A stretch of 64,000 nucleotides of DNA from Desulfobacterales bacterium (lineage in GTDB: Bacteria > Desulfobacterota > Desulfobacteria > Desulfobacterales > SpSt-501), in assembly GCA_025454255.1 (NCBI GenBank), contig JALOOU010000005.1, forward strand, positions 3,045-67,044, read 5' to 3'. Every line of letters starts with the position of its first letter. The stretch's first letter is position 1. Positions 14,993 to 49,722 of this stretch are shown in pieces. Position numbers and translations under genes: made by a program. Below the pieces are notes generated by a model, which was not told the DNA's origin, made no database searches, and worked only from the letters and a program-made list of their open reading frames with translations.

Positions 14993-16235
14993 AGACGCTG
15001 CCTTCAGCCGAGCCTTTCACGGTACCGGACGCCTGCAGTTTCATCAATTTCTCGACCAGCCGATCGTTCAGTTTTTCGATATCAAACTCCTTTTCGACCC
15101 TTGCACGGCCAGCTTGCGCCATCGCCAGCCACGCGGCCGGAGCGGCCAGCAGGCGGCAGATGTTTTCGGCAAGAGCGTCGACGTCCCTCTCCCGGGCCAG
15201 AAGGCCGGATACGCCGTCCTCGACCAGCTCAGGGATCCCGGAGTGGGCGGTGCTCAGCACCGGCAGGCCGCTGGCCATGGCCTCCATCAGTGCCACCGGC
15301 ACGCCCTCCACGTCCCCGTTGCCTGCGGTGACGCTTGGCGCCAGGAAGAGATGCATTCGCGACAGGCAGTCGACGAGCGCATCCTGCCCCATCCATCCCG
15401 CAATGCGGACCTGCGCTTGCAGCTGCAACTCTTCGATCAGATTCTCCAACTCCCCGCGCAGCGGGCCGTCCCCGATGATAGTGTACTCCAGCGCCGGGTA
15501 CCGGGGCACCACCAGGGCCAGGGCCCGCAGGGCATATGCGATCCCCTTCTTCTCCACCAGCCGGGCAACGGTCACCAGCCGGGTTACGCCATCGGGCCCC
15601 GGACGCCGCGGATGAAACGAGAAGCGGGCGCAGTCGACACCCATGGGGTGCACGGCGGTCCGCTCCGGAGGGCAGCCGAGTTCCCAAAGGCGCTGCTGCC
15701 ACGATCGGCTGATCGGGAGAAAAAGGTCTCCATGATGAAAAAGGCGCTCATAGACGCTCTCTCCCCGTTCTTTGAGAAAAACGCTCAGGTCATAGGCGTG
15801 GAAGAACGTCACCAGGTTTCCCTGCAGGGCGCCCGCCTCGCGCAGCCGCAGCGCCTCCAATCCCACATGCCCGAAATGGGCGATGATGGCATCGTGCTCT
15901 GCGGCAGAAGGCGCGGTTCCTCTCGAAGCCCGACGCGGTACAAACGCACGACGCAAAACGCTCCGGCATCGTCGTATAGAAGCGCCGCGCGCCAACGCCG
16001 CTCCGGCAAGCCGCAGCAGCCCCGTCCGGCGCCCGGTCAGCTCGGGCCAGTAGCGCACCCTTTCCAACATCCGGTAGCGGCCGACGTCCGGGTGGGCGAA
16101 AACCTCCGGGCCGGGGCGTCCCGCAATAATGGTCACCGCATGGCCTCGTTGGAGAAAACCCGCTATCTGGCCGAGGATGAATGTCTCGGAGAGTTTGGGA
16201 AATTCGCCCACCACGAAGGCTATACGCATCGTCAT
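14982..16235 (-). CDS. Glycosyltransferase family 4 (GT-B fold, WcaL-like)
   Basis: 417 aa. The N-terminus is MRIAFVVGEFPKLSETFILGQI. The C-terminal half has EGVPVALMEAMASGLPVLSTAHSGIPELVEDGVSGLL (E-x7-E type GT4 motif). Its ATG overlaps the flippase stop (ATGA at 16232-16235). Confidence 0.85.
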   Translation of the reverse strand: MTMRIAFVVGEFPKLSETFILGQIAGFLQRGHAVTIIAGRPGPEVFAHPDVGRYRMLERVRYWPELTGRRTGLLRLAGAALARGASIRRCRSVLRRAFVPRRASRGTAPSAAEHDAIIAHFGHVGLEALRLREAGALQGNLVTFFHAYDLSVFLKERGESVYERLFHHGDLFLPISRSWQQRLWELGCPPERTAVHPMGVDCARFSFHPRRPGPDGVTRLVTVARLVEKKGIAYALRALALVVPRYPALEYTIIGDGPLRGELENLIEELQLQAQVRIAGWMGQDALVDCLSRMHLFLAPSVTAGNGDVEGVPVALMEAMASGLPVLSTAHSGIPELVEDGVSGLLARERDVDALAENICRLLAAPAAWLAMAQAGRARVEKEFDIEKLNDRLVEKLMKLQASGTVKGSAEGSVFRR

Positions 16236-17791
16236 CCCTGTCCAGGCCGTGTCATGGGGCTATTCATGGGTTTTTGGCGCTTGCGGATAAATTCGCCGGA
16301 AAGCTGCGCGGCATCGCGCAAAGCTGCACGGCCGCGGCCGCAGGCCGCCAGCGTTCCCAATGCCGCCATCAGGGAGAGCGCCGCCGCGAACAGCAACCCG
16401 GGTGCAGGACCCCACGCCGGGCCGAAGAGGCGGGCCCCCCCCACCACGGCCGTCACGGAGACGGCGACCATGGCATGCGGAGCGGTCGCATGAAAGAAAT
16501 CCATCGGCCGGATGGGGCCATGCCGGGTGACGTACCAGATGAGCAGCGGCTTGCGCACCAGAAGCCCCATGAGAGAATAGGCCAGCGCCACCCCAAAGGC
16601 CCCCCATGGCAGGCCGATGAAAAAGGAGGCCACGGCAATGCCGGAGCCGATGAATCCCCAGCGCAACATGTGATGCGTGCGGTTCTGCGTGATAAAAAGC
16701 CAGCCCGTCGAATTGCCGATGGGCTGAGTGAAAAGGGCCACCCCGAGGGCGGCAAAAATGAGGCTGGCATCGATCCACGGCTCACCGAGCACCAGCAGCA
16801 CCAGCCAGTCCGAGGTCATGATCATGAAGGCGCTCATGGGCATGGTGATCAACAGGATTTTTTCCAGTATGCGGAAGTAGGCGCGCCGGTAGCGCTCCGG
16901 CTGATCGGCGAGCCGGCTGAGCACCGGAATGGCGATCGAACTCACGGGCTCGTTGATCTGGCGCAGCGGTATCAACATAAAGTCGTAGGCTTTCTGGTAG
17001 AGTCCGACAGCGGCAGGGCCGTAGTGGCGACCCAGAAGCACCTGGTCCAGGTTGCGGGCAAAATAGTTGACCACGCTGAAGCCGGTGAGGTTGCCGCCAA
17101 AGGCGAGCAGGTCTCCGATTTCAAAACCGCGCCGGGGCAACCCCGGACGCCAGCCGCAGATGACCCAGCAGGCGGCAGCGGCAACAGCCGTGGTGATGAT
17201 CCGCTGGCCGACCAGCGCCCAATATCCGAAATTCATAGCGGCCAACGCGACGGCGGTGCCGAGACCTGCGGTGATGGAACTCAGCTCGACCGCGGTCAAG
17301 GCGCCGAATCGCATCCGGCGCTTGAGCAAGGCTGCATGCTGCGAGGCGAGCCCGCCGAAAAGAAACGCCCCGGCCAGGGCCAGCCCGATCCGGTTCAGGC
17401 GAGGTTCCCCGTAGTACCAGGCCAAGGCCGGGGCGATGGCGGCTGCGAGAAGCATGGCGGCAGCGCTGAGCCCTAAATTGATCCAGAACAAACTGCTGAT
17501 CTGCTCGTGGGTGATCTCCTTGCGCTGAATGGTGGCCACCGGCAGCCCCAGGTCCTGGAACATGGCGATGAATCCGGTTACTGCGGCAACCATGCCAACC
17601 AGGCCGAAATCGGCCGGGCTCAGCAGGCGGGCCAGCACCAGGATCGAGGCGATTTGAATCGCAGATTTCGCTGCCTGCCCGGCCGCCGTCCAGGCGCCAC
17701 CTCGGACGGCTTTGGCGCGAAGCTCACCCTCTATATCCGCTGTGTCAAAGTAGGATTGAGTTTTTCCAGGTGGGTGCGCTTCTCGGGTCAC
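16232..17791 (-). CDS. Wzx-like polysaccharide/oligosaccharide flippase (MOP superfamily)
   Basis: I prefer the GTG at 17791-17789, which overlaps the upstream gene stop (GTGA), giving 519 aa. The pattern LRAKAVRGGAWTAAGQAAKSAIQIASILVLARLLSPADFGLVGMV is the usual N-terminal signature of this family, and there are about 12-14 hydrophobic segments. Confidence 0.8.
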   Translation of the reverse strand: MTREAHPPGKTQSYFDTADIEGELRAKAVRGGAWTAAGQAAKSAIQIASILVLARLLSPADFGLVGMVAAVTGFIAMFQDLGLPVATIQRKEITHEQISSLFWINLGLSAAAMLLAAAIAPALAWYYGEPRLNRIGLALAGAFLFGGLASQHAALLKRRMRFGALTAVELSSITAGLGTAVALAAMNFGYWALVGQRIITTAVAAAACWVICGWRPGLPRRGFEIGDLLAFGGNLTGFSVVNYFARNLDQVLLGRHYGPAAVGLYQKAYDFMLIPLRQINEPVSSIAIPVLSRLADQPERYRRAYFRILEKILLITMPMSAFMIMTSDWLVLLVLGEPWIDASLIFAALGVALFTQPIGNSTGWLFITQNRTHHMLRWGFIGSGIAVASFFIGLPWGAFGVALAYSLMGLLVRKPLLIWYVTRHGPIRPMDFFHATAPHAMVAVSVTAVVGGARLFGPAWGPAPGLLFAAALSLMAALGTLAACGRGRAALRDAAQLSGEFIRKRQKPMNSPMTRPGQG

Positions 17792-18750
17792 CTTGCCGGC
17801 TCCTGACGAGGTCCTAATGCCTCTCCGGCCTGGCGGCGGCCGGATGCCTTCATCGCCCCCAACTGTTGGACGATTCTCCAGAAGCGCGGCCCCGCATCGC
17901 GCAGCACCTCCAGGGCTTGGCTGTCGGGAAGATGCCACCAAGCCTCCCCCGTCACCCCGACATGCCGGTTGGTCACCACCTCGCAGCCGAGGAAGCGGGC
18001 CTCCACCGGCATTCGACCGGCCGGCTCCAGTCGGGCGGGCAGAAAAACAAACTGGGCGCAGCGCTGCATCAGGTCAAGCACCTCCTGTGGGTTGATGTTT
18101 TGAATCACCTGCGGCTCGACCCCTCGCTTCCGGCAGTAGGAAAGCGCTGCTCTGAATCCCTTGATGCGGTGCGCCGAATAGGCGATGCAGGTGCCGCGGC
18201 GATCGGTGCGCAAGCGCCCGCTGCGGACCCGGGCCACCCGGTCGAAGAACTCCTGCCCGAAGACCGAAGACCCCAAGACCTGCACCGCTGGAGGACGAAA
18301 AAAGGGGTTGCGCCGGTAGACCGAAAGCTGGTGGTGGGTGAGAAAAATCATGCCCAGCGACGAGGCGATCAATGAACGCAAAGGCCGGTGCGGGCAGATG
18401 CAACGGCCCAGCCAGCGGTGGATGGGATCGCAGGCTGCGGGAAAATTGCCGCGCCAGTGGCAGATGCGCACGTCGTGCTCGAAGAGCACGTGGCGGCCCT
18501 GGTGAACCAGGGCCGCCATCACCTCCGGCCGCGCATGCTTCATGTTGCCGAGAACGTGCACGTCAAAATTTTCAAGCAGCTCCGGCGTGGCCTCCCGGGA
18601 GGTGACGGTATCCACGTGCCAGGGGGCTGCTTGCATAAGCGCCTGGTCGGTCTGCTCCGCCCCGCCGGGGTACCGGCTTTGATCATCACGAACCGATTGC
18701 ATGAACTGATCGGCGATGAAAAGTGTGCGGAGGGGGCGCATCGACATCAT
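17788..18750 (-). CDS. Hypothetical protein, possibly a GT-B-type glycosyltransferase-like protein (320 aa)
   Basis: The track ORF extends to 19122, but the ATG at 18750 (MMSMRPLRTLFIADQF) overlaps the upstream GT4 stop (ATGA at 18747-18750). The C-terminal part (FVFLPARLEPAGRMPVEARFLGCEVVTN) weakly resembles the nucleotide-sugar-binding half of GT-B enzymes. Confidence 0.55.
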   Translation of the reverse strand: MMSMRPLRTLFIADQFMQSVRDDQSRYPGGAEQTDQALMQAAPWHVDTVTSREATPELLENFDVHVLGNMKHARPEVMAALVHQGRHVLFEHDVRICHWRGNFPAACDPIHRWLGRCICPHRPLRSLIASSLGMIFLTHHQLSVYRRNPFFRPPAVQVLGSSVFGQEFFDRVARVRSGRLRTDRRGTCIAYSAHRIKGFRAALSYCRKRGVEPQVIQNINPQEVLDLMQRCAQFVFLPARLEPAGRMPVEARFLGCEVVTNRHVGVTGEAWWHLPDSQALEVLRDAGPRFWRIVQQLGAMKASGRRQAGEALGPRQEPAR

Positions 18751-19991
18751 CCGGTCTCCTGGAGTGCCCGGCGGTAACACGCCACGGTTTGGAGGGCACA
18801 TCGCCGCCAGGTGAAATGTGCGGCCCAGGCACGTCCGCGGGCGGAGAGTTCCTGCCGAAGATTTGAATCGTCGATCAGTTTTCCAATCGCCGCGCTCAGC
18901 GCCTCCTGGTCGTCTGCAGGCACGGTCAAGCTCGCATTGCCCGCCACCTCGCAAAGCGATGTCGTCAGCGTCGTTATGGCGGGAGCGCCGCAGCCCATCG
19001 CCTCCAAAACGGTCAGCCCGAACCCCTCGTAGACGGAGGGAAAAACGTAGCCGAGGCAGCTCCGGTAGAGTGCGGGCATAAGCCCTTCGTCGACGAAACC
19101 GGCCAACACCACACGGGAGCAAACGCCTGCCGCCTCGGCTTCAGCCGCCAGGCCGCGGCGCTGGTGAGAGGTCAATGCACCAGCGATGACCAGCTGTACA
19201 TCCCGGGCCCGGCCCGACTGCGCAAAGGCCCGGATCAGCAATTCAAGCCGCTTGCGGGGGTCGCCGCCGCCAACAGACAGCAAAAACGGATCACGCACAG
19301 CAAGGGCGGCTTTCACCTGCGCGGACTCTCCGGCGGCGCCGCGGCTGCAAAATCGCTCGTGATCGACGCCGTGCCCGACGACATCGATGCGGGCCGGGTG
19401 AATGCCCAACAGTTCGATTACGTCCCGGCGGGTCGCCTCGGAAATGGCGATCAGCCGCACGGCGCTGCGATAGCGGACAACATCGCGCAATCGCCTGACG
19501 AAGCGAGCGCCAGGAAACGCACCCATATACTGCTTATGCAAAATGAGGGGGATCAAATCGTGGCAGGTGATAATCCGCGGCACGCGGCAGTCCCATGGCG
19601 TGCCTTTCGGGTCCGTAAGGTGCATCAGGCGGGCCCCGGTGGAGGCGGCCAGAGTTCCCATCGTTAGACGCCGCACGATGTTGTACTTGGCGTACTGCCA
19701 TTGCGAAGGTCTCAGGTTGGGGTTGCCGGAGTAGCGAAAGGCCGGATCCGTCAGCGGCCCCGAACCGAGGCCGTTGCGGACCAGAGCCTCCACCCTCAAC
19801 CCGAGTCCGCCCGCTGCGGCCAGCTCGGCAATTCCCCGGGCCAGACCGGCCGCATAGCGGCCGATGCCGCGGAACCGCGACGGCGTATCCAGCGGAGTCA
19901 GGTCGACCAATACATCCGGGCCATGCGCCCGGCCGTCTTTTGGATCGACCGGCCGAATTCCCTTGTCTCGCATTGTTTCCCGATCGGGCAA
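18747..19991 (-). CDS. Glycosyltransferase family 4
   Basis: 414 aa. Motifs seen are VLVDLTPLDTPSRFRGIGRYAAGL and FPSVYEGFGLTVLEAMGCGAPAITT (GT4 E-x7-E region). Confidence 0.85.
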   Translation of the reverse strand: MPDRETMRDKGIRPVDPKDGRAHGPDVLVDLTPLDTPSRFRGIGRYAAGLARGIAELAAAGGLGLRVEALVRNGLGSGPLTDPAFRYSGNPNLRPSQWQYAKYNIVRRLTMGTLAASTGARLMHLTDPKGTPWDCRVPRIITCHDLIPLILHKQYMGAFPGARFVRRLRDVVRYRSAVRLIAISEATRRDVIELLGIHPARIDVVGHGVDHERFCSRGAAGESAQVKAALAVRDPFLLSVGGGDPRKRLELLIRAFAQSGRARDVQLVIAGALTSHQRRGLAAEAEAAGVCSRVVLAGFVDEGLMPALYRSCLGYVFPSVYEGFGLTVLEAMGCGAPAITTLTTSLCEVAGNASLTVPADDQEALSAAIGKLIDDSNLRQELSARGRAWAAHFTWRRCALQTVACYRRALQETG

Positions 19992-19993
19992 CT

Positions 19994-21166
19994 TTAGGTG
20001 TCGTCGCTCTCCGTCCGGCCCGGCAGGCCGATGGACCCCTCCCCTCTTGAGGCGAGGAGTCTTCCATATACGCCAGCCGTCTGCTCAGCGGAATCGACCC
20101 ATGCGAAATCCTGCGCCCTGAGAAGTCCCACTTGCCTCAACCGAATGCGTAACCGCGCATCCTTCAGCACCCGTTCGATCGCCGCGGCGATGGCGTCCGG
20201 GCGCAGAGGGTCCGCAAAAACCGCCGCGTCTCCGGCGACCTCCCGGGCGATGGGAATGTCGGAGGTGATCACCGGACAGCCCAGAGCCATCGCCTCCACG
20301 AGGGGAAACCCGAAGCCCTCTATCAGGCTGGGGAACACCAGCGCCCGGGCGCCGCTGAGCATGCGACGCAGCTCGTCATTCGAGACCATACCGCAGAAGT
20401 CCACCTGGGCGTTTATTCGCAGCCGATCTGCAAAGACTTGCAGGCGATGATAGCTGTCTCCCCGGCCGGCGATTTTCAGTCTAAGGCCGGGGTGGCGGGG
20501 CGCCACCAGAGCAAATGCGCGCAGCAGCCCGCGCAGGTTCTTGTAGGGCTTGCTGTTGCCCAACGAGAATAGATAGGCCTCGCCCGAGTCATCCGCATGA
20601 TCCCGTGTCCGGTTCACCGGCATATGGTCTGCGCCGTGATGGACGACGGACATCCTTTCGGCCGGCCACCGATAGCGGGCCTGGGCGCGCCGCGCCGTGT
20701 GGCGGCTGATGGCGATGATATGGTGCGCCCCGGCGAGGACGTGGCGCATCGTTGCACAGCCGTAAAGATGCGTCAGGCGCCACTTCAGCCAGGAGTGGGG
20801 CGTGTCAAACGTCAGGCGGGCATGCTCCTGCCAGATCAGGTCGTGCAGGGTGACGACCACGCGGGGGACCCGCAGGCCCAGCGGCAGGAAATGGTGCAAG
20901 GCATGGTAGAGGTCCAGACCAAGCCGGTTGAGCTGAGGCCCGGCCAGCAAATTGCGCGGGTGGTCGAGGAAGCCGGGAAGAAGCGTCTCTCTCACATTGG
21001 GCCCCTCGCCCAGTTGAACCCGAGCCAGGCGAGGCCGTTTGATCACGATGAAGTCCCACTCGGGTCGCAAGGCGGGCAAGCGCCGGGCCAGCTCCCGGGC
21101 ATAGCGTCCGAGACCTGTTTCGATAATATCCACCATCCGCGCATCCAGCCCGATGCGTGGCCGCAT
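19994..21166 (-). CDS. Glycosyltransferase family 4
   Basis: I prefer the ATG at 21166 (MRPRIGLDARMV, preceded by GGGAGAGGA) over the track start at 21208. It carries the FPSLIEGFGFPLVEAMALGCPVITS motif. It is the first gene of a five-gene minus-strand operon. Confidence 0.85.
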   Translation of the reverse strand: MRPRIGLDARMVDIIETGLGRYARELARRLPALRPEWDFIVIKRPRLARVQLGEGPNVRETLLPGFLDHPRNLLAGPQLNRLGLDLYHALHHFLPLGLRVPRVVVTLHDLIWQEHARLTFDTPHSWLKWRLTHLYGCATMRHVLAGAHHIIAISRHTARRAQARYRWPAERMSVVHHGADHMPVNRTRDHADDSGEAYLFSLGNSKPYKNLRGLLRAFALVAPRHPGLRLKIAGRGDSYHRLQVFADRLRINAQVDFCGMVSNDELRRMLSGARALVFPSLIEGFGFPLVEAMALGCPVITSDIPIAREVAGDAAVFADPLRPDAIAAAIERVLKDARLRIRLRQVGLLRAQDFAWVDSAEQTAGVYGRLLASRGEGSIGLPGRTESDDT

Positions 21167-21376
21167 GCATTCCTCTCCCTTGGCGCTGCCAGGCCGACCG
21201 TGCGCCATCAGCGGGGCCGCCGGACAGGTCGTTGCCCGAGCACAGCCACACGCTGTGCAAAACGGGGGGGGGCAAACTTCGATACAAAGCCGGGACTATG
21301 CTGAAAACCGATTCGGGTGTCAACGCCAATTTGGCTGCACCGCACGTTTTTGAATCGAGCCGATTCCTGTTAGACC

Positions 21377-21595: not shown

Positions 21596-24500
21596 ATGCA
21601 GGATATCGATTGGAACGACTTGGCCCGACGGGCCGCTTTCGTGGGGGTGGATGTCGGGTCGCTGTCGGTCAAAGCCGCCGCCGTCGCGCCCGGCGGCGAG
21701 ATGGTCTGGTCCTTGAAGCGGCCCCACCAGGACGATGCCCTGGAGATGGTGGAGGATCTGGAGCGCCGGTGCCGCTTGAGCGGAATCGCCTTCGGGGTCA
21801 CCGGCCGTCTGAAGGCGGCGGAGGGGCGGCGGCCCCTGGATTCGGTCCTCTGCCTGCACGCGGCCGCCAGGCATCTGCACCCGTCGGCGACCAACATCCT
21901 GGAAATCGGCGCGACGCACTACTGCCGGGTGCGGCTGGACCGCAGCGGCGGCATCCAGTCCATTCAAACCAACCCGATCTGCGCAGCGGGCACCGGCTCC
22001 TTTCTGGACGCCCAGGCGCAACGGATGGGGCTGGCCCATGACGCCCTCGAGTTCGCAGGGATAGAAGCGGACCCGCCGGGAATCGCGACCCGCTGCGCGG
22101 TGTTCGCCAAGAGCGATCTCATCCACCGGCAGCAGGAGGGGTACGACATACAGGCCCTCTGGTCGGGCCTCTGCCGTGGCTTGGCCGAGGGGCTTCTCCG
22201 CGCGCTTACGCACGGCAGCCCGATGCGGGGGGAGGTGCTGTTGTGCGGCGGGGTCGCGCTGAATCGCACGTTTGTCGCCTGGCTGCGGAGCTCGTTCGAC
22301 GGCAATGGAAACAGAGCCTCCGTCACCGTTCTCCCGCAGCCCGAACTCGCCGCCGCGGTGGGGGCGGCGCTTCTCGGCCGCAACGGGAACGGCTTTCACC
22401 GGCGGCCCGTCCAAGCGACCCCCCAGACCTCCCGCACGCGCAGGCCGGCCCTGGCGCTGACGCGATCCAGCCGCGTCCGATACCGGCCTTTGAACTTCCG
22501 CAGCGATCATCTTCAAAACGAAATCACCGTCCACCGCCTGCCCCAGGGGCCCCCGGAGGAGACGCCGCTGTTCCTGGGAATCGACATCGGCTCAACCAGC
22601 ACCAAGCTGGCGTTCGTCGATGCGTCGGGCAGCCTGCTGCTGGACATTTACCGCCGCACCCAGAGCGACCCCGTCCAGGCGACCCGGCATCTGCTGAGCG
22701 CCGCCCGGGCCTGTTTCCAGCAATTTCGATGGGACCCCGTCGTGGCCGGCGCCGGGACCACCGGCAGCGGCCGCAGGCTCATCGGCGAGATCATCGGGGC
22801 CGATCTGATCGTCAACGAAATTTCGGCGCACGTGGCCGGCGCCGTGCGAATCGAGCCGGGGGTCCAAACGATCTTCGAAATCGGCGGCCAGGACGCCAAG
22901 TACATGCGCGTCAGCAACGGCCGCATCGTCGACGCCAACATGAACTACGTCTGCGCCGCCGGGACCGGGTCCTTCATCGAGGAGCTCTGCTCCACGCTCG
23001 GCTACCGCGTCGAGGAGCTCGGCGAGGAGTTGCTGGGCGTCGAGCCGCCCTACATCAACAGCCGCTGCACGGTGTTCATGGAGCAGGACATTCACGCCCT
23101 GCTGCAGGAGCGCGTCCCCCGCCGGGAAGCGGCCGGCGCCATCGTCTATTCGGTCATCGAAAACTACCTTCACCGCGTGGTCGGCAAACGGCCGGTGAAT
23201 GGGCCGCGCGTCATGTTCCAGGGGGCGACCGCGCGCAACATCGCCTTGTCGGCCGCCATCGAGCGCCTGCTGCAGCGGGAGGTGGTCGTATCGCCCTATC
23301 CCCACGCCATGGGCGCCTACGGGGCGGCCTTGCTGGTGCAATCCTCGCCGCCGGATGGAGCCTCGAAATTCAAAGGGCTCGATCTGGCATCGCGGCGCAT
23401 CGAAATCGAAAAGCAGACCTGCGGCGGCTGCCGCAACCGCTGCGAGCTGACGCGGGCCGTCATCGAGGATGAACCGCGGCAGCCGCTGTGGGGAATGAAA
23501 TGCGGGCGCGACGAGACCGGCGGAACCCACAACGAATTGGCGGCCTACGAGCTCTTTCGAAAGCGGCAGGAGCTGGTCCGGCCGGCCCCTGCGGCTGCAA
23601 AACGCCCCTCCTCGCCCAAACGCCTCCTCCTGCCGCTCGCGCTCTCCGCCTATTCGCTCGGCCCGTTCTGGGCCGAGTTTTTCAGCCGCATCGGACTCGA
23701 GCTTGCCGCGGGGCCGCCGACGGACGAACGCTGCCTGCAGTCCGGCCGACAAGTGGCGGCGTCCGAATTCTGCCTGCCGGTCAAAACCGCCCTCGGCCAT
23801 GCCGCTCAGTGCCTTGAACACACCAGCGACCCGCTGTTCGTGCCGCATTTGATTGCCGACTACAAGGTCGCAGGGACCACCCAGACCCGGTTCTGCCCCT
23901 ATCTGGAGGTCTTGCCCTCTCTCATCCGGCCGATGGCTGATAAAAAGGGCGGCGCCGAGGCCCGGATCCTAGCGCCGATCATCGACCTGCGGCTGCCCGA
24001 TTCGAAAAACGCCCAGGCGCTCATCGACAGCCTGCGCCCCCTTGCTTCCATCAGGCAACGAGATGCCGTGCAAGCCCTGCAGCACGCCCATCGCATCCGC
24101 CGGCAGCAGCGGGAGAAAATCGAGGCTGCCGGCCAGACGCGCTGGTCGAGCCTGCGCTCATCCGGCCGGCCGGCCGTGGTCGTCATCGGCCGCCCCTACA
24201 ACACGCTCGACCCCTTTCTCAGCCAACGCCTGCCCTACGAGATCGCCGCAGCCGGGATCGACGTGCTGCCCATGGACGGGCTCGCCTTCCGGCCGGAGCT
24301 GCTCAAGGGGTATTTTTCCAATCTCTTCTGGTCCTACGGCCAGCGGATCGTATCGGCCCTCATCCAGATCGCGCAAACCGACGGCCTCTACCCCGTGTAC
24401 CTGTCCAGCTTCGGCTGCGGGCCGGACAGCTTCATCCTCTCCTATGCCGAAACCATCATGGGCGACAAGCCGCTGTTGATCCTGGAGCTCGACGAGCATG

Positions 24501-25819
24501 GATCGAGCGGCGGGTACCTGACCCGGCTGGAGGCTTTCCTGGAGGTGGTCAAGGCGGACAACTCCAGGCGGCGGCCGGCGGCCGGGTCGGCGCCGTGGCG
24601 GCCGCCGGCGGAAGCCCCGACCCCAGCGGACATCAAGAAACGAAGGCTGTGCGTGCCGCATATGCACCCCACCGGCAGCCGGCTGCTGGCAGCGGCCCTG
24701 CGCGGCGAGGGGTTCAACGCCGTGGAGCTTCCCGTCGAGGACGACACGGCCTATGCCGAAGGCCGCAAATGGGCCAGGGGTTCGGAGTGTCTGCCGGCTC
24801 CTCTGACCCTTGGCAGCTTCCTGAAGCATTGCGGGGAGCAGCGCCGTAAAGGGGAAGACCCGAATACGGGGCTGGCCCTCTTCATGCCCACCTCCGACGG
24901 TCCCTGCCGCTTCGGCCAGTACTGCGCCCTGGACCGAATCATACTGGATGGCGTCGGCTGCCGGGGCCTGCCGATCTTGTCGCCCAGCTCGGAAAACGCC
25001 TATTACGGCATCGACCAGAAGATATTCGAATACATCCTCCTGGCCGACATCCTGTTCAAGCTGCGCTGCCGGGTCAAGCCCCGGGAGAAAACCCCGGGGG
25101 ACACCGAGGAAGCCCTTGATTTGTGGATGAAAAAAGCGGAGCGTGAGATCGAACAGCGGCGCATGCGCCTGAACGCCTTCCTGCCGGAGGCGGTGCGCGC
25201 GTTCCAGCGCATCCCGGTCGAGACCTCCCCCCGGATTCTCGTCGGGGTGGTGGGGGAGATCTACGTGCGCTGCCACGCCTTCGCCAACCGCGGCCTGGTC
25301 GACACCATCGAGCAGCTGGGGGGCGAGGCCTGGGTGGCCCCGGCCACGGAGTGGATCATGTACACCGCCTGGGTGGAGCGCTACCGCTTGAAGCGCAGCG
25401 GCATGGGCCCCTGGCAGGCCGCAACGCTTGCATTGAAGTGGCGCTACATGCAGCGCAGGGAGCACGCGGCTTACCGCCTGGCCGCAGCGCTGCTGTCGGA
25501 TCGCCGCGAGCCCTCTGTCGATGAAATCATTGCCGCCGGGCGTAAGTTTATACCCCCTGATTTCGAAGGCGAATCCATTCTGACCCTGGGGCGCGCCATG
25601 CTCTTCAAGCGCGACGGTGTCGGGCTGATCGTCAACTGCGCCCCCTTCGGCTGCATGCACGGCAACATCACCGCGACGCTTTTCAGCCAGGCGGCCGACG
25701 AATTCCACGCCCCGGTCGTCAACATCGCCTACGATGGGGTCGGAAACGCCAACTCCGCCGTGGAGACGTTCATGGAAGCGGCATGGCGCAACATGAAACC
25801 TGATCGCGGAACCCTCTGA
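21596..25819 (+). CDS. Fused BCR/HAD-family enzyme (PlsA/PlsAR/GeR-like), paralogue 1: two BcrAD/BadFG-type activase ATPase modules, a Cys cluster, and DUF2229/HgdB-like dehydratase-type domains
   Basis: 1407 aa. Module 1 has GVDVGSLSVKAAAV, NPICAAGTGSFLD and TRCAVFAKSDLIH, but EIGATHYC replaces the EIGGQD motif. Module 2 is intact: GIDIGSTSTKLAFV, FEIGGQDAKYMRV, NYVCAAGTGSFIEE, SRCTVFMEQDIHA. A Cys cluster follows, CGGCRNRC...KCG (nt 23420-23503). The C-terminal ~750 aa has VVVIGRPYNTLDPFLS and RILVGVVGEIYVRCHAF segments typical of the activase-associated domains. Confidence 0.8.
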   Translation: MQDIDWNDLARRAAFVGVDVGSLSVKAAAVAPGGEMVWSLKRPHQDDALEMVEDLERRCRLSGIAFGVTGRLKAAEGRRPLDSVLCLHAAARHLHPSATNILEIGATHYCRVRLDRSGGIQSIQTNPICAAGTGSFLDAQAQRMGLAHDALEFAGIEADPPGIATRCAVFAKSDLIHRQQEGYDIQALWSGLCRGLAEGLLRALTHGSPMRGEVLLCGGVALNRTFVAWLRSSFDGNGNRASVTVLPQPELAAAVGAALLGRNGNGFHRRPVQATPQTSRTRRPALALTRSSRVRYRPLNFRSDHLQNEITVHRLPQGPPEETPLFLGIDIGSTSTKLAFVDASGSLLLDIYRRTQSDPVQATRHLLSAARACFQQFRWDPVVAGAGTTGSGRRLIGEIIGADLIVNEISAHVAGAVRIEPGVQTIFEIGGQDAKYMRVSNGRIVDANMNYVCAAGTGSFIEELCSTLGYRVEELGEELLGVEPPYINSRCTVFMEQDIHALLQERVPRREAAGAIVYSVIENYLHRVVGKRPVNGPRVMFQGATARNIALSAAIERLLQREVVVSPYPHAMGAYGAALLVQSSPPDGASKFKGLDLASRRIEIEKQTCGGCRNRCELTRAVIEDEPRQPLWGMKCGRDETGGTHNELAAYELFRKRQELVRPAPAAAKRPSSPKRLLLPLALSAYSLGPFWAEFFSRIGLELAAGPPTDERCLQSGRQVAASEFCLPVKTALGHAAQCLEHTSDPLFVPHLIADYKVAGTTQTRFCPYLEVLPSLIRPMADKKGGAEARILAPIIDLRLPDSKNAQALIDSLRPLASIRQRDAVQALQHAHRIRRQQREKIEAAGQTRWSSLRSSGRPAVVVIGRPYNTLDPFLSQRLPYEIAAAGIDVLPMDGLAFRPELLKGYFSNLFWSYGQRIVSALIQIAQTDGLYPVYLSSFGCGPDSFILSYAETIMGDKPLLILELDEHGSSGGYLTRLEAFLEVVKADNSRRRPAAGSAPWRPPAEAPTPADIKKRRLCVPHMHPTGSRLLAAALRGEGFNAVELPVEDDTAYAEGRKWARGSECLPAPLTLGSFLKHCGEQRRKGEDPNTGLALFMPTSDGPCRFGQYCALDRIILDGVGCRGLPILSPSSENAYYGIDQKIFEYILLADILFKLRCRVKPREKTPGDTEEALDLWMKKAEREIEQRRMRLNAFLPEAVRAFQRIPVETSPRILVGVVGEIYVRCHAFANRGLVDTIEQLGGEAWVAPATEWIMYTAWVERYRLKRSGMGPWQAATLALKWRYMQRREHAAYRLAAALLSDRREPSVDEIIAAGRKFIPPDFEGESILTLGRAMLFKRDGVGLIVNCAPFGCMHGNITATLFSQAADEFHAPVVNIAYDGVGNANSAVETFMEAAWRNMKPDRGTL

Positions 25820-25822
25820 CCG

Positions 25823-27055
25823 ATGGAGCGCATGCGCAGCAAATCCGAAGTCGATACCGCTTTGATCTATTTGGCAGGGGAAGAGCTCTGCGGTTTCAAT
25901 CCCTCATTGCAGCAGATCGCCGGTTTGCCGCTCCTGCAGCGCCAGCTTCTCTGGCTGGCCAGGCACGACATCCGCACCGTTCATCTGATGGCCGCCCCCC
26001 CACAGGTGCCGGACTTAGAGGCTCGCCTGCACGGATGGCGCCGGCGACGCTCCATGCCGGAGGTGATCGTGGGGGGTGAGCCGCCTCGCAAAGCGCAGGG
26101 GAAGGCGGTCGTAGTGGACGGCCGCTTCCTGCATCACCCGGACCTGCTGCGGCACGCGCTGGCCGCCGAGGGGGAGTTTGCCTACGTCGACGGTCAAGGC
26201 GGGTCATGCGGCCTGGGCATCGTCGATCTTCAGAAGGCGGTCGGCCCAAACACTTTTCAATACCTTCCCAAGAACCCGATTCCAATAGATCTTTTCGCCT
26301 GCCGGCTCATCGACGCCCGGCAGGCCGGGCAGGCCGAAACCAAACTGCTGCGAAGCTTCATCAAGCCGACCGACGGTTGGTTTTCGAAGAGGATCAATCG
26401 ATCGGTTTCGCTCGCCATCACGCGAAAAATCGCGCCCCTGCCCCTGACGCCCAACATGATATCCGCCTTTGCCCTGCTGGTGGGGATCGGCTCCGGCTGG
26501 AGCGCCGCGCAGGGAAGCTGGGCCTGGCTGGCGGTCGGCGGGCTTCTCTATCAGGCCGCCAGCATCCTCGACGGGGTGGACGGGGAGCTGGCGCGGGCAA
26601 AACTGCTCTACTCAAAAATCGGCGAATGGATGGACAACGTTTGCGACGACCTGACCAATATCCTTTTTATTGCGGGGGTCACGATCGGGGTCTACCGCAG
26701 TTCGCTCGATCCGTTCTGGACGACCCTCGGCTCTCTATCGTTGGTCGTCTATGGGGCAACGATCGTCATCATGTACGGCAATCTGATCGCAAACAACCGC
26801 AAAGCCTCGCTTTTGGCCTTCCAGGAGAACATCCGCAGGCCCGGCTACCGCCCGGGGAGGATAACTTCATGGCTGGTCGCGCTGCAGCCTTTCATCAAAC
26901 GGGATTTTCACGGATACGCCATGATGGCTGCCGGCATGCTCGGCCTCGCCAAGCTCATCCTGGCCGGTTGGCTGATCGGCTCCGTCCTCACCTTGGGGTT
27001 CGTCTGGTCGGAGGTAAAGCGCCCGGCCGCCGGAGGCTCCTTCTGGAAAGACTGA
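25823..27055 (+). CDS. CDP-alcohol phosphatidyltransferase with N-terminal degenerate nucleotidyltransferase-like domain (IPCT/DIPPS-like architecture)
   Basis: 410 aa, starting 3 nt after the previous stop. The C-terminal membrane domain has the full signature DGVDGELARAKLLYSKIGEWMDNVCDD (DG-x2-AR-x8-G-x3-D-x3-D, about nt 26569-26650). The N-terminal ~190 aa has an NTP-transferase-like layout (ALIYLAGEELCGF...IAGLPLLQRQLLWLARHDIRTVHLM) but lacks the GxGxR loop. The linker KPTDGWFSKRINRSVSLAITRK resembles bifunctional IPCT/DIPPS proteins. Confidence 0.75.
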   Translation: MERMRSKSEVDTALIYLAGEELCGFNPSLQQIAGLPLLQRQLLWLARHDIRTVHLMAAPPQVPDLEARLHGWRRRRSMPEVIVGGEPPRKAQGKAVVVDGRFLHHPDLLRHALAAEGEFAYVDGQGGSCGLGIVDLQKAVGPNTFQYLPKNPIPIDLFACRLIDARQAGQAETKLLRSFIKPTDGWFSKRINRSVSLAITRKIAPLPLTPNMISAFALLVGIGSGWSAAQGSWAWLAVGGLLYQAASILDGVDGELARAKLLYSKIGEWMDNVCDDLTNILFIAGVTIGVYRSSLDPFWTTLGSLSLVVYGATIVIMYGNLIANNRKASLLAFQENIRRPGYRPGRITSWLVALQPFIKRDFHGYAMMAAGMLGLAKLILAGWLIGSVLTLGFVWSEVKRPAAGGSFWKD

Positions 27056-27078: not shown

Positions 27079-27795
27079 ATGGCATTTAAGCTGAAGGACG
27101 TCTGCACGGTCTTCAACATTGTTCTGTCGATTTATGCGGTGGTGCTTTCGTTTGCAGGACAGCTCGGCCTCGCGGCCTGGGTCATCTTCATCGCCTGGTT
27201 CATGGACGGGCTCGATGGACTGATCGCCAGGTGGACCAGGACCGGGAACGAATTCGGCGTGCATTTCGACAACCAGGCGGATCTGTTCATCTACACCGTC
27301 GCGCCGGCGTTCTATGCCTTCGCGGTGTATCGGGACGCCCACTATCTTTTGGGTATCGCGATCTGCTTTGCCGTCATCACGGTGGGATGCATCCGTCTGT
27401 CGCGGTTCAACGTCAAGCCGCTCATCTACCCGGGGTTCTGGATCGGCTACCCGCGCTCGGCGCTGGGCGTGCACATCATCTTTTTGCTGAATTCAAAGTT
27501 GTTTGCCGTGCATCAGCCCTACGTAGCCGCGGCGGTGATGCTGCTCGTTCTGACCGCGCTCAACCTCTCCTACATCCCCTATCGCAACCACAAGCGCAAG
27601 TTCACGCGCTTCGAGTGGGGGGTGTGCATCTTCTGCTGGGTGGTCTGGCCGATCAGCTATTTTTTCGGCTACTTCTGGGACACGGCGCTCTTCGGCAGCA
27701 CCGTCTACGCGCTGCTGCCCTTCACCCCGCTGCACGCCCGATACCGCGAGCCCATCCGGCGCTACATCGAGGAGTGGAGGGCCGCCACCCGCTGA
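27079..27795 (+). CDS. CDP-alcohol phosphatidyltransferase, phosphatidylserine-synthase-like (small PssA type)
   Basis: 238 aa, with RBS GGAGAGGG 8 nt upstream. The signature is DGLDGLIARWTRTGNEFGVHFDNQAD (about nt 27204-27285). The N-terminus KLKDVCTVFNIVLSIYAVVL and TVAPAFYAF match the short PssA-like layout. Confidence 0.8.
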   Translation: MAFKLKDVCTVFNIVLSIYAVVLSFAGQLGLAAWVIFIAWFMDGLDGLIARWTRTGNEFGVHFDNQADLFIYTVAPAFYAFAVYRDAHYLLGIAICFAVITVGCIRLSRFNVKPLIYPGFWIGYPRSALGVHIIFLLNSKLFAVHQPYVAAAVMLLVLTALNLSYIPYRNHKRKFTRFEWGVCIFCWVVWPISYFFGYFWDTALFGSTVYALLPFTPLHARYREPIRRYIEEWRAATR

Positions 27796-27813: not shown

Positions 27814-28563
27814 TCAATTCGCGTAACGGAAAAATGCAAACTGTCTCTCCGCATGGGCGAGCATCTCGGGCGTATCGATATCCTGCCAATACCCGTCGAC
27901 CGCAGCCGCCCGCATGCGGCCGGCATCGGCCAGGCGCTGGATGCCATCCGATAGGCTTGCATCCCCCTTTTCCGCCAGCACGGCAGCCAAAGCGGCAAAA
28001 AGCCCGGGCGTGGCCGAAAAGACCCCGATGTCCACGCAGTTGAACTCATCGATTTTTTTGCCGATACGATGGATGCGCCCGTTCGCCTGCTGCACCTTGG
28101 TGGCATCCTCCAGATCGAAAACCCGCTCCAGCCTGTGGTCGACCAGCAGGGTCGCCCCGCCGTCCGGCGGCGGGTGGGCGGGCAGGCCGGTCATGATGTC
28201 GTCGCTGACCAGATGGTCCCCCATCGCCAGGAAAAAATTTTCCGTGACGTGATGTTGGGCGCACAGGACCGACACTCCGTTGGACCTCCTGTAACGCGGG
28301 TTGAACACGAATTCGATTCGGGCGCCGCCGGAATAGGCGCGTGCGACCGCCTCGCGGACACCATCGGCCGAATGCCCGAGAACCACAATGATCCGCCGGC
28401 ATCCGGCAAGCTCGAGCCCCCGGATGGAATGCCAGATCAGCGGTTTTTCTTGGACGGGTATCAGCAGTTTGGAAAGCCCCGGGCATTCGGCCCCCGCCAG
28501 CCGGACCCCGCAGCCGGCAGCCAGGACAACCCCGGTCGAGATTCTCTTCGAATATGCCCGCAA
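27814..28563 (-). CDS. Nucleotidyltransferase (sugar- or alcohol-phosphate cytidylyl/uridylyltransferase family)
   Basis: 249 aa with an intact N-terminal loop VVLAAGCGVRL (GxGxRL). It has the usual beta-alpha layout (KLLIPVQEKPLIWHSIRGLELAGCRRIIVVLGH) and RBS GGGGGAGGAG. It converges on the CDP-alcohol transferase genes with an 18-nt gap. Confidence 0.8.
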   Translation of the reverse strand: MRAYSKRISTGVVLAAGCGVRLAGAECPGLSKLLIPVQEKPLIWHSIRGLELAGCRRIIVVLGHSADGVREAVARAYSGGARIEFVFNPRYRRSNGVSVLCAQHHVTENFFLAMGDHLVSDDIMTGLPAHPPPDGGATLLVDHRLERVFDLEDATKVQQANGRIHRIGKKIDEFNCVDIGVFSATPGLFAALAAVLAEKGDASLSDGIQRLADAGRMRAAAVDGYWQDIDTPEMLAHAERQFAFFRYAN

Positions 28564-30400: not shown

Positions 30401-32048
30401 GGCTCGCGTGGAGGCTCTTGCTGAAACAAGGCAGGTGCCGGCCGCTGCATCATCCCGATTCCCGGGCGGGTGGCTCTGCCTGACGCTCGTCGTCTATGCG
30501 GCGGCATCCATCGTCGGCATCCTGCACCATGAGCCCTGGCGCGATGAAGCCCAGGCATGGTTCATCGCGAGGGACTGCCCGGATCTTTCTTCCCTGATTC
30601 GGGCAGCGGGCTACGAGGGGCACACGATCTTATGGCACCTCGTCCTGATGCCCCTGGCCCGATCGGGGCTTCCGTTTTTTTCGGCCGCCCTGGTGCACTT
30701 CGGGATCATCCTGGCGGCGCTTCTTCTGTTTTTGCGCCATGCGCCCTTTTCGCTCCACCAAAAGGCCCTTTTCGTTTTCGGCTACTATGTCTTGTACGAG
30801 TACAATCTTATCGTGCGAAACTACGCGCTTTCCGTCCTGGTCCTGTTCGCCCTCGCGTCGCTGCACCCCTTTCGTTTCAAGAAGCCGATAGCCTATGCGG
30901 CGCTGATTGCCCTTCTGGCGAACACCCATCTGCTTGGGCTGGTGATCGCGCTGCTCCTCGCGCTGACTCAGCTGGCTGATGTCAGGCTCTCCGATAACCG
31001 CCGCGGCGGCTGGCGGCGGGGGCTGGCCGTTTTCTTGATTGCCGCGGGCATTGCCGCCTCGGTCTACCAGCTTTGGCCGCCGGCGGATGTGATGCCGCCG
31101 ACGGCCCACCGCGGCGGAGTCGATCCCCCCCTGCTCAATTTCAGCCTTTCGATCGGCCACCTGAGCGTCATTACGCGCTCGCTCGTCGGGGCCTTTCTCC
31201 CGCTCCCGGAGCCCGGCCCCCATTTCTGGAACAGCCGGCTGGTTCACGTCCCTCTCCAGGCGGCCGGCTTGCTTGACGGTTCGCCGTGGGCGGTTCGATG
31301 GGCATATGGCACCCTGCTGGTGTTGCCCGCGCTGCTGTCGGTGCCGTTTTTGGCCCGCAAAACCATCCCCGGGCTGTTTTATCTTGGTTCGGTCTGCTCG
31401 CTGCTGGCCCTTTTTTTCCTGGTCTACGAGGGCGGACTCAGACATTACGGCTTTATCTTCCTGCTGTTCATCTTCGCGCTGTGGATCAGCCGCGACTATC
31501 CCGAGAATCGGCTCGCCGCGCGCCCCTTTATGGATGGGTTTAATTCGAAAAACCGCAACCGGATGGTGACCGCTTTGCTTCTGGTCCATGTGGCCGCAGC
31601 GGCGGTCGCTTTTCACCACGATATCAAATACGATTTTTCATCCGGCAGGAGGGCGGCCGCATTCCTTCAGGACGAAGGGCTGATCAACGCGCGCACGTTC
31701 ATCGCCGCCTACCCGTCCAAAATCGCCTGCTCAGCGCTCGTGCACATCAAAGACCCCGCTGCCGCCGTCTTCATGGTCGAGTACCAACGGATGGGCGCCC
31801 ACATGGTCTGGAACAAGGAGTACATGGACAACCAGGCGCTGCCCGTTGCAACCGTCATCGAGAGGGTCGATGCGGCGGTTGCGGGCAAAGCGTATGAGCG
31901 GGTCGTTCTCATCACCAACTCGAAGACCGCCGATCGGCAGCTGCACGAGCGCTACCAGCTGATCGCCTCCTTCCCTGAAGCAGTGGATCGGCAGGAGTCC
32001 TTTCGCATCTATGAGCTTCGGGCCCCCCTGAATCAAAAACCGGATTGA
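30369..32048 (+). CDS. Polytopic membrane protein, candidate GT-C-fold (PMT_2/ArnT-like) glycosyl- or lipid-transferase
   Basis: 559 aa (start uncertain: ATG 30369 overlaps the previous gene by 32 nt, and in-frame GTGs exist at 30408 and 30429). It has about 11 hydrophobic helices. The first-loop acidic motif [16 protein letters not shown] resembles the DE/DxD loop of GT-C enzymes. A soluble C-terminal ~150 aa follows. Confidence 0.55.
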
Positions 32049-36250: not shown

Positions 36251-36285
36251 TGGGCGGGTTGAAACGGCGGCGCGAGTCGAGCGCG

Positions 36286-37227
36286 CTATCTCGAAGGGTT
36301 CGACCTTACAGGGGCTGCGGCCGCCGGCGCGCCGTGCCAACCGGCCAGCAGCTCCTCGATCTGCCGGTCCTTCTCGGCCCACAGATCGTTCAGCCATTGT
36401 TGAAATTGCGCGCGGAACCCCCCGTCGCCCAGCGGGTCGCCCATCAGTTCAGGGCCCACCGGCAGGCAGCGCACCCGGACCTTGATCTCTTCGATATTTC
36501 CGCACAACAGCGCCCAGAAACCGTGGACCCCGGCCGGGTAGACGATGGTCACATCCAGGATCCGATGAATCTTATCGCCCATGGCGTGCAGCACGGCCGC
36601 TATGCCGCCGGCTCTCGGCCTGAGCAGATGGGTGTAAGGGGACTGCTGCTGCCGGTGCTTCTGGGCGGTGAAGCGTGTGCCTTCGACAAAATTCATGATG
36701 GAGATCGGAATCTGCTGGAATTTGGTGCAGGCCCGGCGCGTGATCTCCAAATCCTTGCCCCGCAGGTGAGGCTTGCGCTGGAGCTTGGCTTTCGAATAGC
36801 GCTTGATGAACGGAAAATCCAGCGCCCACCAGGCCTGCCCCAGGACCGGCAGCCAAAAGAGCTCCTTTTTGATGAAGAATTTCAGGAAGGGGATCTTGCG
36901 ATGAAAAATCCGCTGCAGCACGACAATGTCGGTCCAGGACTGGTGGTTGGCCAACACCAGGAACCACTGCGACGGATCCAGGCTTTCGGCCCCCTGCACG
37001 TCCCAGCGCGTGCCATTGGTGATCCTCTGGTTCAGGTTGTTGCCCCAGACCCATTTTTCGGCGATGGCATTGAGCACCCGGCTGCAGCCCGTGCGCCAGC
37101 CGTGGATGGGGACCAGCGCCTTGAGCGCCGCCATGATGAAAAGCGCCGTGCACCAGACAGCGGTGTTCACCGCAAAAAGAAGAAACGACACGATGCCCCG
37201 AACGGGCCCGGGCAAGGATTTGATCAT
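36286..37227 (-). CDS. PlsC-superfamily lysophospholipid acyltransferase, YihG-like
   Basis: 313 aa. It has an N-terminal TM anchor, the HX4D motif in LANHQSWTDIVVL, then FVEGTRFT, and a C-terminal FQQWLNDLWAEKDRQIEELL that matches my memory of E. coli YihG. RBS is GAGGTG. Confidence 0.8.
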   Translation of the reverse strand: MIKSLPGPVRGIVSFLLFAVNTAVWCTALFIMAALKALVPIHGWRTGCSRVLNAIAEKWVWGNNLNQRITNGTRWDVQGAESLDPSQWFLVLANHQSWTDIVVLQRIFHRKIPFLKFFIKKELFWLPVLGQAWWALDFPFIKRYSKAKLQRKPHLRGKDLEITRRACTKFQQIPISIMNFVEGTRFTAQKHRQQQSPYTHLLRPRAGGIAAVLHAMGDKIHRILDVTIVYPAGVHGFWALLCGNIEEIKVRVRCLPVGPELMGDPLGDGGFRAQFQQWLNDLWAEKDRQIEELLAGWHGAPAAAAPVRSNPSR

Positions 37228-37352: not shown

Positions 37353-37511
37353 CCATGGTTTTTCCCGATGCGGAGAACAAATAATCTGTCCGCAGCTGCA
37401 GCACACGATCTGTCCGGTTTAGCAGGCGACCGAGGCAGAGACCGGGAGGGCGGCTTCCCGGCCGCGCTTGCCAAGCCCGTCAAGGTGGTTTAGGGTCCCG
37501 AGTGCATCCTG

Positions 37512-38339: not shown

Positions 38340-38348
38340 GAGGTGGCC

Positions 38349-38441
38349 GTGGAATATCTTACCATCATCGTTCTCGTTTTCGGGTCGATCATCATCGGGC
38401 TGGTCATCGGCAACCGGCTTCGAAATAGAAACAAGCAATAG
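38349..38441 (+). CDS. Possible 30-aa single-TM micropeptide
   Basis: Not in the track. AGGAGG (38338-38343) overlaps the preceding TAG stop, and a GTG at 38349 follows 5 nt later. The product is (M)EYLTIIVLVFGSIIIGLVIGNRLRNRNKQ: a hydrophobic helix plus a basic tail. Confidence 0.3.
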   Translation: MEYLTIIVLVFGSIIIGLVIGNRLRNRNKQ

Positions 38442-38477
38442 GATCCCCGCCGCACTGCCCGCAGACGAGGTGGCGAC

Positions 38478-46254: not shown

Positions 46255-46260
46255 GGCCGG

Positions 46261-49712: not shown

Positions 49713-49722
49713 GCGAGGCTCC

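Follow-up and report, generated by a model that had tools for sequence, protein, structure and literature searches.

Jackson et al. 2021 and Sahonero-Canavesi et al. 2022 (PMC13159169) defined the PlsA/Ger family, whose members are regarded as oxygen-sensitive, ATP-driven iron-sulfur enzymes that turn a glycerolipid ester into a vinyl or alkyl ether. The PlsA/PlsR system (CPE1194/1195 in Clostridium perfringens, single open reading frame (ORF) forms in Enterococcus and Listeria) yields the vinyl ether, and the Listeria plsA and plsR orthologues appear active under anaerobic growth according to a review (PMC9702350). Ger, a "modified PlsA" described from Thermotoga maritima (Tmari_0479) and Desulfatibacillum alkenivorans (SHJ90043), is a single polypeptide of about 1400-1460 residues (PMC13159169; Hopmans et al. 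2024, PMC11150832), found in anaerobes and with a role in membrane lipids. Here we analyse two genes of this type, P1 and P2, which lie 6 kb apart in a conserved lipid locus of a Desulfobacterales bacterium, within 64,000 nucleotides of contig JALOOU010000005.1 (the window, to which all coordinates refer; Table 1). P1 carries a replaced ATP loop in the first of its two activase modules, and our analysis indicates that this replacement is an old and maintained trait of a large branch of the family.

Several Ger homologues have been reported in deltaproteobacteria (PMC13159169). D. alkenivorans, a diether producer, contains Ger and also Ger2 (SHK01260), which is 25.9% identical to it over 96% coverage and had been proposed as the sn-2 enzyme; in Escherichia coli, Ger sufficed for mono- and diethers, Ger2 by itself yielded none, and adding Ger2 to Ger brought no increase, a result for which the authors consider possible expression problems (PMC11150832). 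A 2026 paper describes Ger as acting at both sn-1 and sn-2, states that no motif or sequence signature yet separates Ger from PlsA, and hypothesises one PlsA and one Ger in Bacillota that have two homologues in different operons (PMC13274423). P1 and P2 resemble the Ger/Ger2 pair in that a second full-length, deeply diverged copy is present in a Desulfobacterota genome, at a comparable identity (29%); Ger2 has been expressed without yielding ether lipids, whereas P1 and P2 are known here from their genes alone.

Strong family matches mark P1 and P2 as genuine genes rather than chance ORFs. P1 is identical to MCU0558958.1 and P2 matches MCU0558964.1 exactly, both from the same "Desulfobacterales bacterium" metagenome-assembled genome (MAG), and the accession numbers differ by six, in line with the five genes that separate P1 from P2. 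Domain architecture, colinearity with Listeria Pls and matches of the activase modules place both proteins in the PlsA/Ger family. Each contains two PF01869 (BcrAD_BadFG) stretches (E = 1.9e-62 and 2.7e-60), a PF09989 domain (residues 670-880 in P2, E = 2.6e-55) and a PlsR-like tail, which in P1 also gives a faint PF06050 match (E = 0.034); this is the architecture of Ger, compared by description and not by sequence, and, like Ger, the pair has a lipid setting. Residues 17-1380 of P1 align with residues 5-1380 of the single-ORF Pls of Listeria monocytogenes (WP_014600632.1; 27% identity, E = 3e-128). The two have the pair of activase modules, the CxxCxxxC...C block and the C-terminal part in common. 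This Pls sequence, the sole Ger/PlsA proxy in our comparison, was recovered from a mislabelled PLSDB record that is a piece of chromosome: NZ_CP030101.1 (2.9 Mb) and NZ_LR134399.1 are labelled as L. monocytogenes plasmids, are really chromosome-sized or chromosome-derived, and carry the chromosomal pls.

At the level of the single module, every activase unit of P1 and P2 aligns over its full length with HgdC/HadI activators and with ATPase subunits of class I benzoyl-CoA reductases (1hux, 4eht, 9gai MbdQ/MbdP), and DCCP reductase is matched as well. The shared features are the ASKHA fold, the phosphate-1, phosphate-2 and adenosine motifs, and two cysteines per module, which are established in HgdC as ligands of a bridging [4Fe-4S] cluster. 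Known activators are separate proteins of about 260 residues that form homo- or heterodimers, whereas P1 and P2 each join two modules and a reductase in one chain. For the C-terminal half of P1, no PDB match was obtained by sequence or profile search. A poor AlphaFold2 model of residues 596-1407 (6 sequences, predicted local distance difference test (pLDDT) 58.5, predicted template modelling score (pTM) 0.56) had 8s02_A, 6eno and 7yyl_A as its top Foldseek matches (probability 1.0, E 1.7e-3 to 4.7e-3, template modelling (TM) score 0.37-0.39). The best, but weak, fold matches of the modelled half would thus be DCCP/DCCP-R (6eno, 7yyl) and BzdNO (8s02), and DCCP and BzdNO are ATP-dependent low-potential reductases that work with an HgdC-like partner.

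Unlike HgdC-type activators, P1 has one of its two phosphate-2 loops replaced. Its first module, Act1, taken alone, matches 9gai_D, 4eht, 7yyl and 1hux at E 1e-13 to 1e-14, and its EIGATHYC aligns to DMGGQDTK / DIGGQDAK of 9gai_D and 4eht, departing from the HgdC-type pattern [DE]-I-G-G-Q-D-x-K. Its VDVGSLSVK and GGVALN do follow the phosphate-1 (G-x-D-x-G-S-x-x-x-K) and adenosine (G-G-x-x-x-N) patterns of these activators; in Act2 the adenosine motif is the variant GATARN. The second module, Act2, matches 9gai_D at 1.2e-28 and 1hux at 2.4e-24, and retains a phosphate-1 motif (IDIGSTSTK) and the cluster cysteines C453 and C491 in addition to its canonical phosphate-2 loop. Listeria Pls has a near-canonical Act1 loop, ELGGEDAK, with D and K kept, where P1 reads EIGATHYC. 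A first-pass annotation of this DNA had reported EIGATHYC in Act1 of P1, an intact loop in Act2 and EIGGQDSK twice in P2, and all of these are read in the sequences, except that EIGATHYC begins at 21902, one base later than had been given. The same annotation had described CAAGTG and RCxVF cysteines in all four modules and a C-x2-C-x3-C...C cluster after module 2 of both proteins; both features are present, and C609, C612, C616 and C636 of P1 are invariant in 50 type A homologues (alignment A1; the classes are defined below).

The first-pass annotation further held that P1 has lost the motif, which would suggest a local degeneration, and the distribution of the loop speaks against this view. 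Among the best 120 homologues of P1 (40-100% identity), QDxK is absent from Act1 without exception, and Act2 reads EIGGQD[AS]K in all; these proteins belong to Syntrophobacteraceae, Acidobacteriota, Aminicenantes, Vicinamibacterales, Bacteroidales, Myxococcota, Syntrophales and others. Conversely, Act1 is canonical in all of the best 120 homologues of P2, about 115 of which carry EIGGQDSK in Act1 and Act2 alike; GGEDAK stands in Act1 of five of the most distant (P0218, P0219, P0225, P0233, P0234). The nearest orthologues of P1 (68-83% identity, P0002-P0011) carry E[VI]GA[TA]H[YF]C, with P0010 starting with D.

A wider search, with residues 1-660 of P1 against 1.84 billion cluster representatives at 50% identity, returned 952 matches below 1e-30, and classes were assigned for 146 of the best 150. 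Type A, defined by an Act1 that lacks QDxK together with G-A-T-A-[RK]-N in place of G-G-V-A-x-N in Act2, makes up 88 of the 146. Types B (Act1 GGQDxK) and C (GGEDxK) account for the other 58, about a dozen of which show independent partial losses; in several B/C-like lineages the Act1 ATP loop has partly decayed, to GGQSAK, GGEDSH or GAQETK. On a quick neighbour-joining tree, computed without support values, type A forms a single clade with a long stem and the sub-branches A1 (D-x-G-G-[GS]-S, P1 included) and A2 (G-G-E-[KR]-F, Spirochaetaceae among others), and B and C are mixed with each other. Of 80 genome loci sampled arbitrarily, all from MAGs, most held type C (Desulfobacteraceae, anammox Scalindua, Planctomycetota, Nitrospirota, Bacteroidales and others) and about a dozen type A, and no second Ger-like gene was found within these 80 loci. 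Judged by this distribution, the replaced Act1 loop of P1 is no recent defect but the fixed mark of an old and very large branch of the family, and P1 belongs to a variant class that is very common, though uncharacterised, within a known enzyme family.

The described enzymes SHJ90043, AGL49404 (Ger), Q8XL48 and Q835P9 (PlsA), and likewise D. alkenivorans Ger2, were not among the best 120 matches of P1, of P2 or of a Desulfobacteraceae type C query. Assigning Ger and Ger2 to classes by their published sizes (159 and 153 kDa) was rejected, the length ranges of the classes overlapping, and a full-text literature search for the IGGQD motif returned nothing relevant. A further, split class was observed in four Desulfobacteraceae / deltaproteobacterial MAG loci (L067, L068, L071, L075), with a PlsA-like protein of about 1025 residues and a PlsR-like one of about 450, an Act1 loop SMGGQ[DE]TA and the cysteine motif CASGTG. 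In all four the second ORF begins in the same frame, within a few codons of the stop; an in-frame selenocysteine TGA was ruled out, the stops being TGA, TGA, TAG and TAA, with an ATG start after each.

The conservation pattern within the 146 representatives separates the two modules. EIGGQDxK in Act2 is 98-100% conserved in all classes. At the corresponding position of Act1, types B/C show (in percent) E86, I, G98, G94, Q60/E32, D81, x, K87, and in type A the first G alone is fixed. Type A Act1 retains phosphate-1 (D 96%, G 98%) and the adenosine GG..N (96-100%), and both cluster cysteines are 100% conserved in the 88 type A and the 58 B/C representatives. Two changes in Act2 co-vary with the Act1 loss in type A, namely G-A-T-A-[RK]-N in the adenosine motif (98-100%; GGVA is usual in B/C) and a Lys that ends phosphate-1 (GxDxGSTSTK; 100%), where B/C have Asn at 68%. 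Among the near orthologues of P1, identity is 67% in Act1, 82% in Act2 and 47% in the linker between the modules, and among those of P2 it is 71% in Act1 and 72% in Act2. Since Act1 of the P1 orthologues stands well above the linker (67% vs 47%), type A Act1 is relaxed but clearly maintained, under constraint. Furthermore, P1 keeps every invariant residue of the 50-sequence type A alignment (P1 included), comprising the complete Act2 site and, in the reductase half, 10 cysteines, in a frame that is intact over 1407 codons with a G+C content at third codon positions (GC3) of 0.85.

The first-pass annotation had called P1 and P2 two full-length colinear paralogues of the PlsA/Ger type, and indeed BLASTP gives a single colinear alignment over residues 16-1387, with 403/1411 identities (29%, E = 7e-140). 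Each has proteins in other phyla that are nearer to it than its partner is, and on these comparisons the two are ancient paralogues from two separate old clades, with no recent duplication. The P2 start differs among pipelines, giving 1383 residues in MCU0558964.1 and 1405 elsewhere. The ORF (32033-36397, minus strand) runs 49 codons further than our choice, into the upstream acyltransferase gene, and the ATG at 36250 gives 1405 residues and stays clear of that gene, which ends at 36286.

The difference in the first ATPase module, which had also been pointed out, is confirmed, and the pair is retained together in related genomes. In two of these (L083, L084), two CDP-alcohol transferase genes come after type A, which is convergent with type B, as in the window; L083 in addition has an acyltransferase gene upstream and a nucleotidyltransferase gene directly downstream of type B. 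The short CDP-alcohol transferase is kept in both at 70-75% identity. The long one follows type A in both and again in L002, where type A and P1 share 54% identity. GT4 glycosyltransferase genes are neighbours of type A in L084 and, together with a Polysacc_synt (Wzx-like) flippase gene and a radical-SAM gene, in L002 and L085. Linkage of type A to CDP-alcohol transferases as a general rule was rejected: it holds for the nearer relatives of P1 (at least 54% identity), not for L003-L007 and L086.

Our preferred reading, to which we give a probability of roughly 0.6, is that P1 and P2 are both functional members of the PlsA/Ger family, that Act1 of type A proteins is a non-hydrolysing half and Act2 supplies the power, and that the two proteins serve separate lipid substrates or branches. 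In such an enzyme, the two fused HgdC-type modules would form a pseudo-dimer that shares one bridging [4Fe-4S] cluster and is joined, in one polypeptide, to DUF2229/HgdAB-like reductase modules; as in HgdC-type activators, ATP binding and hydrolysis would push a low-potential electron into the reductase half. Act1 of type A, whether or not it binds nucleotide, would hold the shared cluster and the dimer interface and act as a lever, and Act2, as the sole canonical site, would alone power electron injection. P2, of type B, would keep two canonical ATP sites. Because the locus is convergent, with different neighbour genes on its two sides, it suggests that P1 and P2 serve different lipid substrates or pathway branches. 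The P1 branch would comprise the two CDP-alcohol phosphatidyltransferases beside the glycosyltransferase/flippase cluster, and the P2 branch the lysophosphatidate acyltransferase (LPAAT) and, in relatives, the nucleotidyltransferase. Family membership, clade structure, motif distribution, sequence constraint and synteny are shown here, and the ATPase asymmetry, the substrate partition and the product are inferred from them; the gene context favours different lipid branches over different glycerol positions.

Several observations weigh against this reading. The loss of the motif is no proof of lost hydrolysis, and type A Act1 may still bind or hydrolyse ATP: in the bulk of type A the loop, D-[IV]-G-G-[GS]-S (DIGGGS.T), looks like the phosphate-2 loop that Hsp70 and MreB have as generic ASKHA proteins, a likeness by which nucleotide binding in Act1 is still conceivable. 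The monophyly of type A comes from the quick tree mentioned above, and its GATA[RK]N signature is not perfectly exclusive, having a few exceptions, such as L047 and P0355. Tight linkage of P1 and P2 is confined to the near clade (at least 68% identity), and no second copy lies within 8-10 kb in the distant type A loci L002, L085, L086 and L003-L007. Finally, it is by sequence alone that the type A and type B proteins are likened to ether-lipid enzymes.

Among the alternatives, the pair could be divided by product, one being a PlsA/PlsR-type plasmalogen (vinyl-ether) synthase and the other a Ger that reduces on to the saturated alkyl ether. This would agree with what has been hypothesised for the two-homologue Bacillota, and with the lack of a sequence signature between PlsA and Ger (PMC13274423); moreover, the activase part, by which electron delivery is set, is not the same in P1 and P2. 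Listeria Pls, however, is about equidistant from both (26-27% in the best high-scoring segment pair, with 25-30% to other class representatives), and its Act1 GGEDAK matches neither, so that we consider a division by product unlikely.

The first-pass annotation had proposed a division by position, in which P1, half-degenerate after duplication, and P2 would act on sn-1 and sn-2 esters and jointly give dialkyl glycerol diethers. There are two diverged copies in one locus, and D. alkenivorans, which makes diethers, also has two copies at a similar distance. Yet the motif state is old and clade-wide, Ger is described as acting at both positions (PMC13274423), and the idea is not new, having been tried in D. 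alkenivorans with a negative or inconclusive outcome: Ger sufficed for mono- and diethers and Ger2 added nothing (PMC11150832). We hold this division to be quite improbable. The observation from which it started is real and its interpretation holds in part, the positional idea having been tested elsewhere, negatively or inconclusively; the other option then put forward, that P1 and P2 may act on different lipid classes, fits the gene context.

A catalytically dead P1, whether its gene is decaying or the protein assists or regulates P2 without being an enzyme, could be imagined from the missing Q, D and K of its Act1 phosphate-2 loop, from the faster evolution of Act1 than of Act2, and from the absence of product with D. 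alkenivorans Ger2 in E. coli, the class of Ger2 not being assigned. Against it stand the intact frame and its GC3, the presence of all residues invariant in type A, and the many loci and phyla in which type A genes stand alone, which implies that type A has no general dependence on a type B neighbour; we regard a dead P1 as very unlikely. A role outside lipids, as a fused activase/dehydratase acting on acyl-CoA or another soluble substrate, is suggested by the database name "acyl-CoA dehydratase activase" and by the matches to 2-hydroxyacyl-CoA dehydratase activators and benzoyl-CoA reductase subunits, but can hardly be credited, since the full-length architecture and colinearity fit PlsA-PlsR/Ger, not HgdABC, and the conserved immediate neighbours are phospholipid genes (CDP-alcohol transferases, LPAAT).

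Beyond the two reductase genes, the locus contains further lipid-related functions. The nucleotidyltransferase and the long CDP-alcohol transferase match, respectively, the N-terminal half and the DIPP-synthase half of the bifunctional model NF041135 (inositol-1-phosphate cytidylyltransferase / DIPP synthase), at E 1.1e-33 and 1e-23 and far below the model cut-off, which hints at a CDP-inositol-type head-group route in the lipid locus. No gene similar to the FAD oxidoreductase or to the 559-residue protein was found in L083 or L084, and by this comparison the two genes are an insertion relative to the related loci. In the Acidobacteriota MAG L085, type A stands beside phosphoenolpyruvate (PEP) mutase/phosphonate, GT4, flippase and radical-SAM genes and a 400-residue CDP-alcohol transferase gene, which suggests a complex (phosphono)glycolipid cluster around an ether-lipid reductase; its GT4/flippase/radical-SAM setting resembles the GT4/Wzx block upstream of P1.

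Elsewhere in the window, 43781-53118 twice holds a set of genes for circularly permuted ATP-grasp, alpha-E and transglutaminase-like proteins, together with a DUF2126 amidoligase fusion, all unrelated to the lipid locus. A gene at 38478-41570 (plus strand) encodes a 1030-residue protein with N-terminal and mobile domains of the pyruvate-phosphate-dikinase type and a weak C-terminal match to 3-keto-disaccharide hydrolase; the long ORF antisense to it (37419-40154) is probably spurious.

Table 1. Positions of P1, P2, their motifs and the neighbouring genes in the window (nucleotides unless residues are stated).
Feature	Position	Strand	Remarks
P1, PlsA/Ger-like fused activase-reductase	21596-25819	+	type A, 1407 aa, 154 kDa
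Act1, activase module 1 of P1	residues 14-265; 21635..22390	+	HgdC-like ASKHA fold, non-canonical phosphate-2 loop
Act1 phosphate-1, VDVGSLSVK	21647-21673	+	
EIGATHYC, Act1 phosphate-2 position	residues 103-110; 21902-21925	+	
Act1 cluster cysteines	21980..22117	+	C129 in CAAGTG, C167 in RCAVF
Act1 adenosine motif, GGVALN	22247-22264	+	
Act2, activase module 2 of P1	residues 323-585; 22562..23350	+	canonical
EIGGQDAK, Act2 phosphate-2 loop	22877-22900	+	
QGATARN, Act2 adenosine motif	23219..23239	+	type A signature; types B/C QGG[VT]AxN
C-x2-C-x3-C-x19-C block 3' of Act2	23420..23503	+	C609, C612, C616, C636
DUF2229 (PF09989) reduction domain of P1	residues 679-894; 23630..24277	+	E = 1.8e-40
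PlsR-like C-terminal part of P1	24278..25819	+	colinear with the Listeria Pls C-terminus
P2, PlsA/Ger-like	32033..36250	-	type B, 1405 aa, 152 kDa
EIGGQDSK, both activase modules of P2	35909-35935 and 34964-34990	-	
C-x2-C-x3-C...C block of P2	34361-34441	-	
GT4 glycosyltransferase cluster and Wzx-like flippase	14982..21208	-	divergent from P1
Long CDP-alcohol phosphatidyltransferase	25823..27055	+	410 aa; PF01066; starts 4 nt after P1 stop
Short CDP-alcohol phosphatidyltransferase, PssA-like	27079..27795	+	238 aa; PF01066, TIGR00473-like
Nucleotidyltransferase, inositol-1-phosphate cytidylyltransferase-like	27814..28563	-	PF12804, PF00483
FAD oxidoreductase	28823-30400	+	NF005546, 820 bits
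559-aa protein without family match	30369-32048	+	overlaps P2 stop by 16 nt
YihG-family 1-acylglycerol-3-phosphate acyltransferase (LPAAT)	36286..37227	-	NF058536 at 4e-127; directly upstream of P2
Promoter-like site upstream of the YihG-type acyltransferase	37352-37324		

A stronger proposal, that type A is a mechanistically distinct ether-lipid synthase with one catalytic ATP site (Act2), a non-hydrolysing Act1 and its own substrate or product niche, is tentative and in our view rather unlikely. If it were true, the ATP cost per electron would be halved, and a one-site ATPase would find a parallel in the degenerate nucleotide sites of ABC transporters and bear on the energy cost of ether lipids. 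Type A might then, for example, reduce the esters of a particular CDP-alcohol-derived or glycosylated lipid, or supply the second activity that stayed silent with D. alkenivorans Ger2 in E. coli, and the Act1 loop together with GATA[RK]N in Act2 would be the missing signature for sorting PlsA/Ger homologues. Should the tested Ger enzymes themselves be of type A, the feature would simply be normal for the family.

PlsA/Ger-type enzymes are now seen as the source of bacterial ether lipids, among them the branched tetraethers that serve as palaeoclimate proxies, and many anaerobes carry several deeply diverged copies of these enzymes. The classes described here can be checked from sequence, a replaced Act1 phosphate-2 loop with GATA[RK]N in Act2 marking class A, and GGQDxK or GGEDxK in Act1 marking B/C. 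The asymmetric class A is old, widespread and under constraint, and the P1/P2 locus, which holds one copy of each kind beside head-group and acyltransferase genes, would be a natural test case.

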